64,000 nt of DNA from Hadesarchaea archaeon (GTDB taxonomy: Archaea; Hadarchaeota; Hadarchaeia; Hadarchaeales; Hadarchaeaceae), in the NCBI GenBank assembly GCA_030601675.1, contig JAUWBN010000003.1, positions 2,255-66,254 on the forward strand, written 5' to 3'. Numbering within the stretch: the stretch's first letter is position 1; each line of letters begins with the position of its first letter. A program made the translations under genes and the position numbers. The notes below the pieces were generated by a model. The model ran no database searches and was not told the origin of the DNA. It worked only from the letters and a program-made list of their open reading frames with translations. Below, piece after piece: positions 2,508 to 9,026 of the stretch.

Positions 2508-2756
2508 ATGAGGGGTGACCCAAGGGACTTCTTCGACCTCTATCAGCTGGCGAGGAACTTCGACTTGGCGAACGTGCAAAAGCTCTTTTTTGAAAAGTTG
2601 AAGGCGCTCGGGGTGAGGTTCAAAGAGGGGCGGTTTCAAGAGAGGTTGGAGGGGGCAGACATGAACCAGATAGGCTACTTGATCCCCGCCGAGGTTAAAA
2701 TTGATGGGGAAGAACTCGTGGCCACGTTGAGGGGAAGCTTTGCGTTTGTTTTCTGA
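2508..2756 (+). pseudogene. Possible C-terminal remnant of an AbiEii-type nucleotidyltransferase toxin
   Basis: 82-aa ORF. The PRDFFDLYQLAR segment resembles the conserved (A)RDLYDL helix of AbiEii-family proteins. It is far shorter than the full-length family, and there is no room for the N-terminal domain. Confidence 0.3.
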
Positions 2757-2930: not shown

Positions 2931-5900
2931 GTGAAAGAGAAATTAGCACTAGTAATCGCAGCCCTATTAATAACTTCAATGGCATTTGCGATATCGACAA
3001 CCACTGTCACAGCCCCATCGACCTTTAGCGCTTCGCCGAGTGCGACTGCGACCTTAGACGAGCCCGACCCTGCGAGGGTAAGGGCGAACACCCGGATGTT
3101 GATAAAGATCACCGTGACAAATGACTCGACAACCGATAATATCGACAACGTTCGGATCGTCGCTACTACGGTCTTCACCCAGGCGATCGGCGGCGCTTCA
3201 GCAGCTGAGAACCTGGAGCTTGCGGCGGACAACATGGAGAACGCGGTTGCATTCCTACAGGGAGCAGGGGAGAACCTGATCTTCGCGGAGGATAACAAGA
3301 AGGCAGCCGGCTCCAAGTTGACTAACGCTGCCGTGGATATGGACACCGCGGGCGGATGGCTCAACATAGCGACCGAGACAAGTGAGAACATCAAGAACGC
3401 GGGCAGCAATTTGAAGACTGCAGCTCTCAATTTAAGCAGGGCAGGCGACAATCTGAATGCCGAGCCGGAAAATTGGGACTTGGTGGCGAGTAAGCTCTCC
3501 ACGGTGAGTTCGTTCCTAGACTCGGCGGGCATATACTTGGTGGAGAACGATACCGCTGATCCATTAGACAACGTTCTGGAGAATGCCGGGTGGCGTCTGG
3601 ATAATGCTGCGGCCCGCATAAGCGACGCATCCACCGCAATAGCGGGCGGAAGTCTCCGTCGGGCGGGCGAGAACCTCAAACTTGCGGGAGAGAACATAAA
3701 GGTTGCAGCTGATAACCTCGACGAAGCAGGTACCGGCACCAACGAAGATAACGCAGCCGCTCCCTTGTGGGCAGCTGGCGATAAGATATACAATGCAGGT
3801 GTCGATCTAGTTAATGCAGGCAACAACTTAGACAACGCCGGCTACGCTTTGGGCTTGGCGGAGAACTACCTGAAGAGCGCGGGCAGCCTGATAGAGGCAG
3901 CTGACACAGACCTTGTGGTAGCTGGCGACAACCTCGAGAATGCGGCTCTTATGCTCGAGGCGGCAGAGAATCAGCTGAGGGCCAACACAGAGAACGTCCA
4001 AGCCGCAGGAGAAAACCTAGTCAGCGCAGCCGCGTGCATGGCGAGTTCAGCATCGGGACTCGGCGTTGGCCTTGGCGGTGACGAGGAGAACGCTGCACAA
4101 GTACACATTAAGGCCGCAGGTGACAACATGAAGTCAAGCGATAATGTGGACCTGACTGTAGCGGGCAACCAGCTGATTGCTGCGGCGTCTGACTTGGAAG
4201 CGGCAGCTGCGGCGATGTTGTTGACCGCGAACAAGCTTGTGCCGATCACGACCACCTGGGACATGAGTACTGGAGCAGACTACGTGCAGTTCGACGCGCA
4301 CCTCGGCGGGGAGAACAGTATAGCTCCCACCCTCAGCGAGACCTTCGGCTTCCTCTGGACCACACCGACCATCACCACCGAGGAGAACTACACCCTAGGG
4401 ATTCTCACCAGCATCGAGGAGCTGCTCTACACCGAGTGGGATAATCTGGGCGGCTTTACGTTGACCGTTGACGGCAAGATCCCGACCCTGGCAATCGTGG
4501 TTACGCAGACGGGCGTGGTCGACAGGGATAACAACGCGGTCGAGAACGTGGTGGGCACGGCCCTCGACAACGAGGCGACGATCACCATAACCGCGAGCGA
4601 GGAGCTGCAGTTCATCGGCACCGTAACCGTGGAGAACTCCGGCGGTACTGAGGAGAACTTCGTGTCACCGATTACGCTGACCACGACCGACAACAGGGTC
4701 TACACCGGTACCTTCCTCGTAGGGACATGGGATGACAACGTGCCAGTGGTGAAGGTAGCGAGCGCCAAGGACCTAGTGGGTAACGAGAACGATGTTGGCA
4801 TGGAAGGCAGCTTTATCGTGGACACCCGAGCGCCGGTCTTCACCGACAACGGCTTGCTCGGGCTCATCAATGGCATGGCGAGAAAGAACGTCACGCAGGC
4901 TGGGACCGATATAACCTTCGCCTATGTGGACAACAACGCGGACCAGAACATATCCATATTCGTGCAGGACAACGCGCTAGGTGAGGCTGACAACGACTTC
5001 TGGGTCATCTCAGTCACCATCGACACAGACGATGCAGCTCCGGACCCGACGATCGATGACCGCTGGTTCAAGGCCAAAACTCTCAGCGAGGGCCTGACCT
5101 CCGTCCTGATCGTCACGGCGACCGACCGCGTGGGCAACACGGTGAGCGACAACGTCGAGAACATCTTCATCGACACCAAGCTACCGACGATTACGTTCGA
5201 GGACGGCGCCTCGATTACCAGGATGATCGGCAGGACCAATATAATCGGCGGGGAAGAAACAGAGGTAACCTTCAGCGCGGGAGTGCGCATCAACGACAAC
5301 ACACCGAAGATCGAGATAATAATAAGTGATCAAGGCTACACATCGACCGGTATACCGCCTGCTTTGGGAGTTGCGCGCGAGAACCTCATCGTACAGCTTG
5401 ACAACGATGAAAACATCTTGAATGGAGCCTTCTACCGGATACTTGATAACAAGGACCCGTGGAGGACTCAAGCGCAGATAGCGGCAGGCGTCTTCGAGAA
5501 CGTCATCGAAAACGTAGGAGGCGGTGGGCTCATGGACGGCACCTACTACATCACCGTGTGGGCCTCTGACAACCTCAACCACGACGGCGAGAACGGTTAC
5601 ACTTTGAGCCGCAGCTTCATCCTCGACACCGTGGTGCCTAACATACTGAACGTTGTAAATCCAAATGTAACAAGCATCCTAGACACGGAGCTCATGACGG
5701 TGATAGTATCACCCACGCAGGAGACCACGATGTTGGTCAAAGGCGTGTCAGATGAGGCAGAGTCAACAATATACATCTATGTCGGTGATAACCAAGTTGG
5801 CTTCGTGCAGTCCGGCACCGACAGCAAATTCCAGGTAGAGATAACGTTGAGCGAGGGAACCAACGTGATCTACTTTAAGGAAGTCGACCTAGCGGGCAAC

Positions 5901-6308
5901 GAATCGGACAAGGAGCTCTACAGGACCTATATAGTGGACAAGACTCCGCCAGTGATTACAGTTACGACGCCAGTTGCGGACGAAACCACGGACAAAGCCG
6001 TTATCACCGTGAGCGGCACGGTCATCGACAGCGTGGCCAAATACGACGAGCTGATTGTGACGATAGATGCCACAGGCACCTACGTGGCCAAGAGGGTCTA
6101 CCTGAACCCAGATGGTAGCTTCAGCACATCTGTGCCGTTGGTAGAGGGTAGCAACGTCATCAACGTGATAGCAATAGACACAGCTGACGTCCAGAAGATA
6201 GCGAGCGTCACGGTTACGCGAACGGTTACACCTTGGGCGACCTACGCGATTATCGTCGTGATAGTCGCGTTGTTACTGGCTGCGATTGCGATATTCCGGA
6301 AGCGCTAA
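2931..6308 (+). CDS. Large secreted surface (S-layer-like) protein with a heptad-repeat stalk, Ig-like region and C-terminal membrane anchor
   Basis: 1125 aa. It has an N-terminal signal-like segment (KLALVIAALLITSMAFA), about 350 aa of xxAGxNL heptads, a T/V/D/N-rich beta-type region, and a C-terminal TM helix (WATYAIIVVIVALLLAAIAIF) followed by RKR. Confidence 0.7.
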   Translation: MKEKLALVIAALLITSMAFAISTTTVTAPSTFSASPSATATLDEPDPARVRANTRMLIKITVTNDSTTDNIDNVRIVATTVFTQAIGGASAAENLELAADNMENAVAFLQGAGENLIFAEDNKKAAGSKLTNAAVDMDTAGGWLNIATETSENIKNAGSNLKTAALNLSRAGDNLNAEPENWDLVASKLSTVSSFLDSAGIYLVENDTADPLDNVLENAGWRLDNAAARISDASTAIAGGSLRRAGENLKLAGENIKVAADNLDEAGTGTNEDNAAAPLWAAGDKIYNAGVDLVNAGNNLDNAGYALGLAENYLKSAGSLIEAADTDLVVAGDNLENAALMLEAAENQLRANTENVQAAGENLVSAAACMASSASGLGVGLGGDEENAAQVHIKAAGDNMKSSDNVDLTVAGNQLIAAASDLEAAAAAMLLTANKLVPITTTWDMSTGADYVQFDAHLGGENSIAPTLSETFGFLWTTPTITTEENYTLGILTSIEELLYTEWDNLGGFTLTVDGKIPTLAIVVTQTGVVDRDNNAVENVVGTALDNEATITITASEELQFIGTVTVENSGGTEENFVSPITLTTTDNRVYTGTFLVGTWDDNVPVVKVASAKDLVGNENDVGMEGSFIVDTRAPVFTDNGLLGLINGMARKNVTQAGTDITFAYVDNNADQNISIFVQDNALGEADNDFWVISVTIDTDDAAPDPTIDDRWFKAKTLSEGLTSVLIVTATDRVGNTVSDNVENIFIDTKLPTITFEDGASITRMIGRTNIIGGEETEVTFSAGVRINDNTPKIEIIISDQGYTSTGIPPALGVARENLIVQLDNDENILNGAFYRILDNKDPWRTQAQIAAGVFENVIENVGGGGLMDGTYYITVWASDNLNHDGENGYTLSRSFILDTVVPNILNVVNPNVTSILDTELMTVIVSPTQETTMLVKGVSDEAESTIYIYVGDNQVGFVQSGTDSKFQVEITLSEGTNVIYFKEVDLAGNESDKELYRTYIVDKTPPVITVTTPVADETTDKAVITVSGTVIDSVAKYDELIVTIDATGTYVAKRVYLNPDGSFSTSVPLVEGSNVINVIAIDTADVQKIASVTVTRTVTPWATYAIIVVIVALLLAAIAIFRKR

Positions 6309-6356
6309 GGGGAAAAACGCCAATCATCCCCTTCGCTTTTTTTATTTTTATTTATT
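6288..6356 (+). repeat. Direct repeat copy A (last 21 nt of the surface-protein CDS plus terminator)
   Basis: gcgatattccggaagcgctaaggggaaaaacgccaatcatccccttcgcttttttt... matches 7510-7576 at roughly 90% identity, with 2-3 indels. Confidence 0.85.
6299..6343 (+). terminator. Hairpin plus T-tract at the end of the surface-protein gene
   Basis: gaagcgctaagggg ... ccccttcgc followed by ttttttt. The stop codon lies inside the stem. Confidence 0.5.
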
Positions 6357-6445
6357 TTTTGTTTTGGACGAATTTCTGTCGATCTCAACTTGTGACTAAA
6401 TGTTTAGACGATAAAGTATAAATAATTAGACAAAGGTACATTTAA

Positions 6446-6979
6446 TTGATACTTATGGTACAACCGCTTGATCGAATATTTGGAAATCGGGTTTGCTGGT
6501 CGGTGCTCAATTTTTTCCTAAACAACCCAAACGGGGAATTTTACGAGCGCGAGATCCAGCAAAGGGTTGCAGCAGCGAGGGCGAGTGTCCGCAAATGGCT
6601 GCAAGCTCTGGAGCAGTTCGGCTTTATCTCAACGACCAGGCGGGGTAGGTTGAAGCTGCATAGGCTAAACCGCGAAAATCCACTTGTGAAGCAGCTGAAA
6701 GTTTTAAGCACGATGAGCGAACTCCTGCCAAAACTCGAGGGCTGCAAGGGCCGGGGCGAGATTTATCTTTACGGCTCAGCAGCACGCGGCGAAGGACTTG
6801 AGGACTCAGATTTGGATATCCTTGTGGTAGGACGTGAACGAGAGGTGATCGGTAAGGTCAAGGCAATCGACGAACGAATAAAGGTCAGCTTTTTTACCCC
6901 CCTCGAGTGGGCAAAAATGGCTAGGGAGGATCCGGCATTTTACGAGAGGGTTGAGCGGGACAAAATAAGGCTGGTGTAG
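6446..6979 (+). CDS. wHTH-fused minimal nucleotidyltransferase (MNT-type antitoxin-like)
   Basis: 177 aa. The NTase signature is YGSAARGEGLEDSDLDILVV (GS...DxD), and the N-terminal approximately 90 aa look winged-helix-like. ATG 6455 is a likely alternative start. Confidence 0.75.
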   Translation: MILMVQPLDRIFGNRVCWSVLNFFLNNPNGEFYEREIQQRVAAARASVRKWLQALEQFGFISTTRRGRLKLHRLNRENPLVKQLKVLSTMSELLPKLEGCKGRGEIYLYGSAARGEGLEDSDLDILVVGREREVIGKVKAIDERIKVSFFTPLEWAKMAREDPAFYERVERDKIRLV

Positions 6980-7402
6980 ATGGACATTGAGAGTTGCCTG
7001 CGGGAGGGTTTCTTGCAGCAAATAAAAGTGGAGCGAGACCTCATCGAGAAGGAGTTCAAGGAGGCGAAATATGACGTCGGGAAGGCTGAGCGAGCGCTCG
7101 AGGAGGGCGACTTTAAGTGGTCGATTGTTAAAAGCTATTACTCTATGTTTCACGCTGCCCGCGCGGTATTGTTTTCGCGCGGGTTCAAGGAGCGGCGGCA
7201 CTTCGCAATTAGAGTCGTGTTGGAAGACTTAAACATGAAGGGGAAGTTGGAAAGCAAGTTCATCTCAGATTTTTCCGCTGCGCTTGGCGCGAGGGAGGAT
7301 GCTGACTACAGGTATACCTACTCGCAAGAAACCGCCGCTTATCTCTTGAGTGCTGCTGGAGATTTCTTAGCGAAGATGAAAAGGCTGGCGAAAAAGTCGT
7401 AG
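6980..7402 (+). CDS. HEPN domain protein (HEPN/MNT toxin-like partner)
   Basis: 140 aa, all-helical. It carries the conserved ...GAREDADY... motif of HEPN (PF05168-type). Its start lies immediately after the NTase stop. Confidence 0.75.
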   Translation: MDIESCLREGFLQQIKVERDLIEKEFKEAKYDVGKAERALEEGDFKWSIVKSYYSMFHAARAVLFSRGFKERRHFAIRVVLEDLNMKGKLESKFISDFSAALGAREDADYRYTYSQETAAYLLSAAGDFLAKMKRLAKKS

Positions 7403-7509
7403 CTAGCACCGCTTTTTCGAAAAGCCGCCTTAGTTGGGGCCGCGCAACTCCTGCTATTTGTCCTGTCACCTTAGTCAGCTTGGACGATCATCATGCGGGT
7501 GGCTCGGTC

Positions 7510-7576
7510 GCGATATTCCGGAAGCGCCAAGGGGGGAAAACACAATCATCCCCTTCGCTTTTTTATTTTTTATTTT
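7510..7576 (+). repeat. Direct repeat copy B (degenerate surface-protein 3' end plus hairpin/T-tract)
   Basis: gcgatattccggaagcgccaaggggggaaaacacaatcatccccttcgctttttt. The stop codon of copy A (TAA) reads CAA here. The repeat abuts the stop of the convergent fumarate hydratase beta gene. Confidence 0.85.
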
Positions 7577-8127
7577 CCCCAACGCTTTTGGTGTATGTAG
7601 AGGTTGTTTCCTTTTGTATCGATGGCCACCACGAGCGGTCCGAAGTTTAGAACTCGCAACACCCACAACGCCTCAGCCGTCCCCAGGTCCCGCCACAGCA
7701 CCCTTTCGACCCTTTCGATCGCTTGGGCAGCGAGCACCGCGGCGCCGCCCGTGAATGCTAAATAAACGCAGCCTAGCCGAGCCAGCTCCGCGGCAACCTC
7801 TTCACCGATCCCCCCCTTGCCTATAAGCACCCTCACGCCGGTTCGCCTGACAAATTCCGCCTGCATTCGGTCGAGGCGGGCGCTCGTCGTTGGCCCCCCC
7901 GACAAAATTTGCCAGCTGCGAGGGGTCTTTCTAACAATGGGCCCGCAGTGATAGATAACGGCACCACGAAGGTCAAGGGGCAACCGCTTTCCAGCCCGGA
8001 GGAGTTCAAGCGCTCTGAGGTAGGCCCTATCACGCGCGGTCACGATTCGCCCGTTTATCTTTACGAGTTCGCCGGCGCGCAGCTTCTTGACATCCCGCCC
8101 GCTGAGTGGTGGATTTAGGTTAATCAT
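7570..8127 (-). CDS. fumB: Class I (Fe-S) fumarate hydratase / tartrate dehydratase-type hydro-lyase, beta subunit
   Basis: 185 aa with the motifs IYHCGPIV and LIGKGG, typical of the beta subunit. It follows the alpha subunit gene. Confidence 0.8.
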   Translation of the reverse strand: MINLNPPLSGRDVKKLRAGELVKINGRIVTARDRAYLRALELLRAGKRLPLDLRGAVIYHCGPIVRKTPRSWQILSGGPTTSARLDRMQAEFVRRTGVRVLIGKGGIGEEVAAELARLGCVYLAFTGGAAVLAAQAIERVERVLWRDLGTAEALWVLRVLNFGPLVVAIDTKGNNLYIHQKRWGK

Positions 8128-9026
8128 CAGGGCGCCTCCACCCGCAAGCGCCCGTTAAGGAGCCTAGCACGAGCTCGTCTGGCAGCCCAGCACTGGAGCG
8201 CAACCGCGACTGGAAGGCTCGCGGTGTGGCAGGCGGCTTTCTCCACGTGCACGCCCAGCACCGTCGTTTGACCACCCAGCCCCATGGGGCCGATACCGAG
8301 CCTGTTCGCGGCTTGTGCGATCCGGCGCTCCAGCCTCGCAAGCCCCGCATCCGGGTTTGGTCTGTCCAGAGAACGTAGGAGGGCGCGCTTCGCCAGCACG
8401 GGGGCAACCTCGGCCGAACCCCCGACCCCCACGCCCACGATGGTCGGCGGGCAGGGTTGACCCCCGGCCTCCACGAGTGTCAACAGCACCGCTCGCTCGA
8501 TGGCTTTCCCCCCATCGGCAGGCCGGAGCATGAAAAACCTGCTCCAATTCTCAGCGCCCGCACCCTTGACGAGCAGGTCGATCGAGAGCTTTTTCCCAGG
8601 AATGAGTTCGAGGTGGACAGATGGCTGCTCGATGCCGACGTTGGTGCCGGTGTTCTTGCGGGTGAACGGGTCGACGATGTTTGCGCGCAGCGGCACCTCT
8701 CGCGTGGCTTGGGCGACGGCTTTGTCGAGGGCTTTTTTCAAATCGAAGTTGAGCTTGAGTTCAGAGCCGAGCCGGATGAAAAAGGTGAAGGTGCCGGTGT
8801 CCTGGCAGATGGGCGCTCCAAGCCTTTTTGCCAGTTCGAGATTTTTCAGCATGCAGTCGAGTTGTAGCCTGGCGATGCGGCCTCGTTCGCGCCCCCTGCT
8901 TCGTTTGAGCGCACGCACGATATCTTCTGGCAGGGCAGTTTCGGCGCGTCGAAGCATCTCAACGATGGCGGCTCGAAATTTGGGCTCGGTCAGCATGCAA
9001 TCGAGTTTTGATAAGGTTGGCAACAT
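8127..9026 (-). CDS. fumA: Class I (Fe-S) fumarate hydratase, alpha subunit
   Basis: 299 aa with the motifs CQDTGT and KGAGAEN, typical of the Fe-S hydro-lyase alpha domain. Confidence 0.8.
   Translation of the reverse strand: MLPTLSKLDCMLTEPKFRAAIVEMLRRAETALPEDIVRALKRSRGRERGRIARLQLDCMLKNLELAKRLGAPICQDTGTFTFFIRLGSELKLNFDLKKALDKAVAQATREVPLRANIVDPFTRKNTGTNVGIEQPSVHLELIPGKKLSIDLLVKGAGAENWSRFFMLRPADGGKAIERAVLLTLVEAGGQPCPPTIVGVGVGGSAEVAPVLAKRALLRSLDRPNPDAGLARLERRIAQAANRLGIGPMGLGGQTTVLGVHVEKAACHTASLPVAVALQCWAARRARARLLNGRLRVEAP

Follow-up and report, generated by a model that had tools for sequence, protein, structure and literature searches.

The window analysed here is a stretch of 64,000 nucleotides (nt) from a Hadesarchaea archaeon (GenBank assembly GCA_030601675.1, contig JAUWBN010000003.1; C6:2255-66254 of the source assembly). 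The source genome, denoted G000, comprises 937,688 bases in 35 contigs and is 86% complete. Between the gene of a large surface protein, S, and the convergent fumarate hydratase gene fumB, the window contains a predicted toxin-antitoxin (TA) cassette, W, made up of a minimal nucleotidyltransferase (MNT) gene fused to a winged helix-turn-helix (wHTH) region and a HEPN gene. The cassette lies between two copies of a direct repeat, R, which consists of the 3' end of S and its terminator; the second copy is truncated and is denoted Rt. We read W (6357-7576) as one cassette of a modular TA array in a recombination hotspot between S and fumB, with a probability of about 0.6. In what follows, G numbers denote genomes and L numbers loci or contigs (for example, L038 belongs to G010, and L041 is contig C1 of G024), while H stands for a bona fide MntA/HepT pair and X for an MNT206/HEPN137 pair. 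The features of the locus are as follows.

2931-6308, plus strand: surface-protein gene S, 1125 aa, with a C-terminal transmembrane (TM) anchor and Pfam matches to Glucodextran_B and Big_3_3.
6277-6356, plus strand: full copy of R (copy A), comprising the last codons of S (…AAIAIFRKR, stop), a terminator hairpin that contains the stop codon, and a T tract.
6357-6454, plus strand: leader and promoter of W, with a TATA box (6417-6424) between two direct repeats.
6455-6979, plus strand: wHTH-MNT gene, 174 aa from the ATG at 6455, with an alternative in-frame TTG start at 6446; predicted antitoxin and autorepressor.
6980-7402, plus strand: HEPN gene of the AF0298/UPF0332 type, 140 aa; predicted toxin.
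7403-7499, plus strand: 3' spacer of W, with a T5 tract (7412-7416) and a small hairpin just past the HEPN stop.
7500-7576, plus strand: truncated copy of R (copy B, Rt), comprising a coding remnant (…VAIFRKRQ, the stop changed to CAA), a hairpin and a T tract, and overlapping the fumB stop.
7570-8127, minus strand: fumB, fumarate hydratase C-terminal subunit (Pfam Fumerase_C, E 2e-44), convergent; right border of the hotspot.
8127-9026, minus strand: fumA, fumarase N-terminal subunit.

The two genes of W are adjacent and co-oriented, with MNT upstream, and the TAG stop of the first is directly followed by the ATG of the second. The MNT protein matches Pfam NTP_transf_2 (E 7e-10; 39.6 bits against a cut-off of 21) and consists of a wHTH region (residues ~1-72), a linker helix (76-97) and the MNT core (99-174). 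The GSX10DXD motif of the core, G107-S108…D119-L-D121, is encoded at 6773-6817 (YGSAARGEGLEDSDLD); across 47 homologues no variation was seen at G107, S108 or D119, while at least 90% keep D121. An AlphaFold2 model built from the 47-sequence alignment (predicted local distance difference test score, pLDDT, 92.8; predicted template modelling score, pTM, 0.83) features four helices followed by two strands (residues 5-71), the long helix (76-97) and an alpha/beta core. In Foldseek comparisons with the PDB, the C-terminal half matches the MNT antitoxins 8XEO, 8XEH, 7AE9, 7BXO, 2RFF and HI0073, and the N-terminal half matches winged-helix regulators of the ArsR/MarR/TrmB type (NolR, SqrR, AF1382, Phr and TrmBL2). 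Since the Pfam and NCBIfam wHTH matches for residues 1-88 are sub-threshold only, the wHTH assignment rests on the fold; the model supports the fused N-terminal wHTH that had been proposed for this protein in the original prediction.

The HEPN protein matches Pfam PF05168 (E 4e-15; 56.4 bits against a cut-off of 22) and AF0298 (PDB 2HSB; E 7e-7), the REESDY of the latter lining up with REDADY in W. Its homologues carry the UPF0332 label, and its gene is the sole PF05168 gene in the source assembly. The motif R105-E-D-A-D-Y110 is encoded at 7292-7309 and H58 at 7151-7153; residues H58, H74, R105, D109 and Y110 are near-invariant, and there is no histidine at +5 of R105. The ratios of non-synonymous to synonymous substitution rates (0.11-0.17 for wHTH-MNT, 0.06-0.09 for HEPN) indicate that both genes are under purifying selection. 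The two Pfam matches, together with a promoter of its own (see below), agree with the earlier description of W as a self-contained MNT/HEPN cassette of the TA type.

Class II HEPN/MNT pairs have been characterized by Yao et al. 2020 (PMC7641770) as PF05168/PF01909 pairs in which GSX10DXD is kept, RX4H is missing and a tyrosine is conserved. With its gene order, its GSX10DXD motif and a PF05168 HEPN protein that has the tyrosine and no RX4H, W is by sequence a Class II pair. Assignment as a type VII HepT/MntA (Class I) pair was considered and rejected: W falls below the NCBIfam cut-offs (MNT scores 23.3 bits against the MntA equivalog NF047752, cut-off 60), and the toxin belongs neither to DUF86/PF01934 nor to PF08780 and is devoid of RX4HXY. 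The HEPN protein has no PF01934 match and no NCBIfam HepT match, its motif reading REDADYRY. In PADLOC, MNT matches the candidate defence profile PDC-M05A (E 2.3e-19; residues 15-170 on positions 16-185 of 201), and the PDC-M05 partner profile was not matched by the HEPN protein. AF0298-like HEPN proteins that lack the Rx4-6H histidine and have a conserved alternative N-terminal histidine were described by Anantharaman et al. 2013 (PMC3710099). By family resemblance, the W HEPN protein (R105, D109, Y110, H58 and H74, with no canonical Rx4-6H histidine) would be the growth-inhibiting partner, and the upstream MNT would neutralise it, probably by binding it and/or by nucleotidylylating the conserved tyrosine.

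The leader of W contains a TATA-like box, TATAAATA, at 6417-6424, and TTAGAC hexamers at 6404-6409 and 6426-6431, exactly at the coordinates originally assigned to them. The hexamers belong to a pair of direct repeats, TTAGACGA (6404-6411) and TTAGACAA (6426-6433), which are 22 nt apart from start to start and enclose the TATA box. As the ATG follows ~30 nt past the box, the W transcript is probably near-leaderless. The arrangement TTAGACRA-N14-TTAGACRA occurs once in the window, and any match to it was found in 0 of 100 shuffles. The first box is present in 11/11 orthologous leaders and the second in 9/11, including the leader of a cassette of 67% identity at an unrelated locus; from about -60/-55 to the ATG, leader identity is 85-88%, compared with 66-67% at 4-fold degenerate sites. 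In other wHTH-MNT cassettes this position is taken by direct-repeat pairs of another sequence, namely two copies of AAGTAACC in G024 and two copies of TTAGTCAAAAATGACT in X, and this divergence between cassette families in equal geometry supports autoregulation by the fused wHTH. The TTAGAC pair, already singled out earlier, is a candidate operator that its conservation and this comparison support well. The fused wHTH of MNT would bind the two TTAGACRA repeats around the TATA box and thereby autorepress the operon.

At the other end of the cassette, the 3' spacer (7403-7499) is 84-85% identical to its counterparts in G009 and L071, compared with 66-67% at 4-fold degenerate sites (P = 4e-5 for G009, 2e-4 for L071). 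For the 97-nt spacer and for the left half of Rt, identity between lineages is 84-87% against the same 66-67%, with P from 4e-5 to 9e-3. Up to ~7460 the spacer moves with W even where R is missing, as judged by the limits of homology in G024, L062 and L064. The remaining segment (7460-7499) may be an eroded remnant of a surface-gene 3' end, to which it shows a faint colinear TM-coding similarity that is not significant alone. No Rfam match and no convincing fold were found for the spacer, and an Rfam scan of 6150-7700 returned only two chance-level matches (E 2 and 9), with no RNA family in R or spacer.

Alignment of the two flanking repeats confirms that the tail of the surface gene and its terminator recur around the cassette. 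Positions 6283-6353 and 7505-7575 form 71-nt direct repeats of 86% ungapped identity, the sole long direct-repeat family reported; a gapped alignment of 6288-6356 with 7510-7576 gives 61/70 identities (87%) with 4 gap columns, and the similarity reaches ~11 nt further left, to 6277/7500 (69/81, 85%). The TAA stop of the surface gene (6306-6308) reads CAA in copy B, and the fumB stop codon (7570-7572) falls within the T tract of that copy. The predicted hairpin is present but longer than described, since it takes in the last two S codons and the stop codon. Its folding energies are no better than those of shuffles (z -0.35 to -0.5); some support comes, by inspection, from variant pairs below the AAGGGG stem, which are C-G in G000 and G012 and G-C in G009. 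A search of all 35 contigs for further copies, as had been suggested, found only these two (E 3e-33 and 3e-18), the next match being a 17-mer with E 0.017. R is therefore not a general terminator in the source genome; this candidate role was ruled out, and in relatives too R is found only after surface-gene paralogues and array cassettes.

Public records bearing R, and the closest homologues of both W proteins, come from metagenome-assembled genomes (MAGs) of Hadesarchaea or Candidatus Hadarchaeota. In these relatives, R follows each surface-gene paralogue and Rt follows each cassette of an array. An empty site, in which S and fumB converge on a single R with a gap of 60-110 nt, is present in G012, G002, G001, G006, G007, G024, G022, L088 and L091. 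The order surface gene, shared terminator, fumB, which had been proposed as ancestral, is thus seen in at least nine relatives. Altogether there are seven array configurations at the one S/fumB site, without mobility genes. The occupied sites are arranged as follows.

S-R-W-Rt-fumB: G000, G009 and L074.
S-R-W-Rt-H-Rt-fumB: L071-73.
S-R-H-Rt-W-fumB: L064-66 and L084.
S-R-X-Rt-W-fumB: L062, L089 and L090.
X-Rt-H-Rt-fumB: L092.
S-R-X1-Rt-X2-Rt-(fossil W leader)-fumB: G010.

W occupies this same site in G009, L071-73, L074-76, L062 and L064-66. It is also found elsewhere and without R, as part of an MNT/HEPN island next to mnhE in G024 (described below), between mnhE and S in L070, and at an unrelated locus in L067. 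Homology between G000 and G024 spans ~6384 to ~7460, which defines the core unit of W as running from promoter to terminator. Across relatives, the two W proteins are 74-89% and 79-91% identical, and fumA/fumB there 62-69%; in L074 the W proteins are 79% and 86% identical and the flanking housekeeping proteins 62% and 64%, and in G024 the corresponding values are 89% and 86% versus 65% and 69%. That distant lineages resemble each other more in the W proteins than in the housekeeping proteins on either side indicates horizontal spread of W. These results and the R-less loci bear out the suggestion that the cassette is mobile.

The closest relative, G010 (97.7% nucleotide identity in lig), has lost the W genes and has three R copies around other cassettes. 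It retains a fossil W leader on L038 (6763-6930, minus strand), in which an R copy, spacer, both TTAGAC boxes and a degraded TATA box, TTCAAATA, can be recognized. The fossil leader abuts the T tract before fumB, and the genes were removed by a deletion other than R x R. It had been argued originally that a cassette-less relative with both repeat copies would speak against an insertion bounded by the repeats; G010 presents this situation in part, its R copies now bounding other cassettes.

The junctions of the arrays follow a consistent pattern. To its left, each Rt has a flank peculiar to the cassette before it, whatever comes next. The right junction is constant after the T tract (…CCTGTTTT), where the W or the H leader, or else fumB, follows. 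The halves of the Rt that follows W were compared in G000, G009 and L071, the L074 rows being left out. The left 35 nt are 89-100% identical among these three and 49-75% identical to the full R of the same genome; for G000, the values are 89% to the Rt of G009 and L071 and 75% to its own copy A. The surface gene of G009 ends in AIFGGPRIWKR, and its Rt codes for AIFRKR. Over the right 52 nt, on the other hand, Rt matches the R of the host (87% in G009, 98% in L071), as compared with 73% to the Rt of G000. Rt(W) is thus chimeric in sequence, its left half travelling with the cassette and its right half tracking the host R. In addition, copy B has CTCGGTC where copy A has CTGCGATT; as this variant is common to copy B of other genomes, copy B was evidently inherited with the cassette and not copied from the local target. 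Identity between G000 and G010 decreases toward the site, from 97.7% in lig through 96.9% in a dacZ-like gene and 95.5% in fumA to 84.3% in fumB, and the array itself is unalignable.

It is most likely, on this pattern, that R marks the recombination joints of a swappable cassette array and is not the footprint of a transposition. As in minimal mobile elements, the anchors enclose alternative content or none and show traces of recombination, to judge by the chimeric Rt, the identity gradient from 97.7% to 84.3%, and cassettes that are more similar than their flanks. Comparison of the arrays shows each cassette ending in its own Rt, which is fused to that cassette on the left and attached on the right, always at one and the same point, to the next leader or to fumB. 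In the proposed mechanism, cassettes would be gained, lost and reordered through crossovers or gene conversion within R. This would most likely proceed by general homologous recombination, for which no dedicated integrase would be needed. Cassette circles with one R might integrate and be excised in the Campbell manner, or related cells might supply array segments that are taken up by double crossover, with R and fumB as anchors. Empty sites would then be either never-occupied sites or products of R x Rt excision, and the unselected left edge of Rt would erode.

The insertion with target duplication proposed originally, if taken literally as a transposition-type event in which a long-stagger cut duplicated ~68 nt, would account for direct repeats around an insert and for the existence of single-copy empty sites, and yet we regard it as very improbable. 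A duplication of 70-80 nt or more is far beyond typical transposase target duplications, no inverted repeats were detected in 5800-8200 (and hence no terminal ones), and neither a transposase domain nor another mobility gene was identified in W, whose only two long open reading frames (ORFs) belong by their matches to the MNT and HEPN families. W also occurs elsewhere (G024, L070 and L067) without such a duplication. The shared CTCGGTC variant contradicts local copying; copy B, with its cassette-specific left and host-specific right half, is not a fresh local copy, and relatives have arrays in which 2-3 copies of this repeat enclose other cassettes. An unlikely but less remote alternative is that copy B is a static remnant, the decayed 3' end of a tandem surface paralogue whose body was deleted or replaced, in which case W would lie between what were once two surface genes and R would be unrelated to movement. 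Tandem surface genes that each end in a full R do exist in G009, G003, L064 and L071, and the stop of copy B has decayed to CAA. The colinear TM-coding similarity, with indels, left of Rt would fit as well; it is clear for the Rt of L076 (29 versus a shuffle maximum of 14), marginal for the second Rt of L071, and faint and not significant for G000 and G009. Left unexplained, however, are three cassette types with their own Rt in permuted orders (W-H versus H-W, X-W versus X-H), the conserved left half of Rt(W) together with its host-tracking right half, and the retention of at most ~70 nt of a 3-kb gene.

A more serious competitor, although still an improbable one, is site-specific recombination in trans, in which R (about -15 to +60 around GCGATATTC) would be an att-like site for a recombinase encoded elsewhere, either a tyrosine (XerA-like) recombinase or an enzyme of another kind, and non-autonomous cassettes, akin to those of integrons or to cis-mobilisable elements, would insert at the 3' end of S and regenerate it. 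Repeats that correspond to a gene 3' end are the classic signature of integrase insertion restoring the target gene, the junction past the T tract is constant, and the left boundaries of truncated copies of different cassette types fall within a window of ~20 nt. G000 does have a tyrosine recombinase, on another contig, and archaeal integrons and integrase-less attC arrays have been documented, some of them in Hadarchaeota (PMC9668308). Against this, a PF00589 search of 21 genomes found no recombinase gene in or next to any of ~25 arrays, and at E <= 1e-3 there is no match at all in G010, with its three R copies, or in G001 (94% complete, 3 contigs), MAGs being incomplete; some Hadesarchaea may lack a XerA-type recombinase or have a highly divergent one. 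R has no attC architecture either: inspection revealed neither an R''/L''…L'/R' palindrome nor a GTTRRRY core, Rfam gave no match, and only a simple terminator hairpin is present. Moreover, the cassettes bring their own promoters, and the boundaries vary between cassette types and even within X (-12 versus -27). Several observations nevertheless weigh against a homologous-recombination array and partly toward a dedicated site. The conservation of the spacer and the left half of Rt above the neutral rate is not predicted by pure homologous recombination and may reflect a cis-acting function. In at least eight truncated copies, the left boundaries cluster ~12-33 nt upstream of GCGATATTC, possibly extending to 72 nt, which may point to a defined att-like site instead of homology that has eroded. 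When the left flanks of 11 copies were aligned locally with their own full R, boundaries ranged from -12 to about -72, with alignments clearly above shuffles only for L062, L076 and G010_3, so that the further-left similarity favouring erosion is weak (z about 1-3). The right half of the G000 Rt reaches just 79% identity with copy A, so that G009 and L071 are the main basis for the host-specific right half; the L062- and L064-type arrays contain no Rt belonging to W, which requires secondary loss; the experiments of PMC7641770 concern Class I only, and not the toxicity or AMPylation of Class II; and all comparison genomes are MAGs (56-95% complete) or metagenome contigs.

A recombining cassette array at the S/fumB site, as favoured here, can be compared with several known systems. 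With described Class II HEPN/MNT pairs (COG2250/COG1708, the 'thermophilic' HEPN_T-MNT; PDB 2HSB), W shares the operon with MNT upstream, GSX10DXD, and a PF05168 toxin with R…DY and conserved N-terminal histidines. Such pairs are mobile, patchy in distribution and abundant in archaea (PMC7641770, PMC3710099, PMC2701414). Unlike those described, the MNT of W has an N-terminal wHTH and a defined operator-like repeat pair; a DNA-binding partner acting in trans for HEPN/MNT was raised by Makarova et al. 2009 as speculation only. With type VII HepT/MntA systems, W has in common the gene order and an MNT core fold that matches MntA structures, and by analogy the toxin is likely to be neutralised in the same way, by nucleotidylylation of the tyrosine adjacent to the arginine motif. 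In relatives the same arrays include a true HepT/MntA cassette, H, in contrast to W, whose toxin is PF05168 and not DUF86/PF01934, and in which the RX4HXY site reads R-E-D-A-D-Y-R-Y, with no histidine.

As regards mobility, the arrays resemble those of integrons (superintegron TA cassettes and archaeal integrase-less attC arrays) in being tandem and in one orientation, with one repeat delimiting the cassettes, in their strain-variable order and content, and in TA cassettes that have their own promoters. They differ in having no IntI and only 1-3 cassettes, in a repeat that is a gene 3' end with its terminator instead of an attC hairpin, and in being anchored on a surface gene and not on attI/Pc. 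Minimal mobile elements of Neisseria (PMC3787668, PMC1797815) likewise have alternative cassettes or an empty site between anchors, carry no mobility genes, and have had their spread ascribed to homologous recombination. In Hadesarchaea, by contrast, the internal R separates cassettes, allowing reordering and Campbell-type gain and loss, and the host is an archaeon for which natural transformation is not known. Finally, 3'-end-inserting integrative elements (those of tRNA-gene integrases, and cis-mobilisable, integrase-less ones) also have repeats of the target 3' end, with the intact gene regenerated on the left and a truncated copy on the right, but here the target is a protein gene with its terminator, and no integrase was found in cis or, for some genomes, anywhere.

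The anchor gene S is itself hypervariable in its body, whereas conservation is seen in the signal peptide and over the final ~90 nt: compared with relatives, S is 30-49% identical over the last 400 aa, and its 3' end is ~90% identical at the nucleotide level. In S and its orthologues (L037-L047), the signal peptide of ~80 aa is 47-53% identical and the TM anchor and terminator are conserved at the nucleotide level; the body is only 30-49% identical even where lig genes are 98% identical, and several relatives have 2-3 tandem paralogues. These features suggest that S alleles are swapped through recombination at the conserved ends. In L045 (G011; 4822-7254) and in L053 (G014), the S/fumB gap holds a second surface-type protein of 810-815 aa, with no R and no TA cassettes.

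Further modules were observed in the surroundings. Between mnhE and S, an ORF of 82 aa (2508-2756, plus strand) has a weak match to the C-terminal region of the nucleotidyltransferase toxin AbiEii (Pfam E 0.005, below the cut-off), and in L074 and L075 an intact AbiEii-type pair of 198 and 219 aa takes its place; the ORF looks like a decayed TA module on the other side of S. Beside mnhE in G024 (L041, 1-10100), six or more modules of the MNT/HEPN or MntA/HepT kind form an island, one of them a 309-aa MNT-HEPN fusion. A four-gene block of G024, encoding a DUF3108-like protein of 262 aa, a HEPN protein, a wHTH-MNT of 186 aa and a surface-like protein of 338 aa, recurs in the arrays of G010 and G037. 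A TnpB/Cas12f1-like gene (434 aa; L062, 8497-9801, minus strand) lies between fumA and a DUF192 gene and is absent from the window. A search of viral contigs found neither the R pattern nor an encoded relative of the W MNT.

MNT/HEPN pairs are the most abundant TA-type modules in archaea, and to our knowledge essentially nothing is known of how they move. The locus offers a testable picture, in which cassettes ending in the tail and terminator of a neighbouring gene are permuted at one hotspot with no recombinase gene nearby, and it is at the same time a compact system for questions of Class II HEPN toxicity, MNT nucleotidylylation and wHTH autoregulation. As a tentative and somewhat doubtful extension, the site could be an integrase-independent, integron-like array in which TA or abortive-infection cassettes adjoin the 3' end of the hypervariable surface gene, whose product is the likely virus receptor, with R serving as terminator, insulator and recombination joint. 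If so, populations would swap and reshuffle their surface alleles jointly with their defence cassettes, and a cis-acting element promoting the exchange may be formed by the ~100-nt spacer with the left half of Rt. In these subsurface archaea with genomes of ~1 Mb, the coupling of a fast-evolving surface protein to exchangeable defence or addiction modules could have a bearing on virus-host dynamics.

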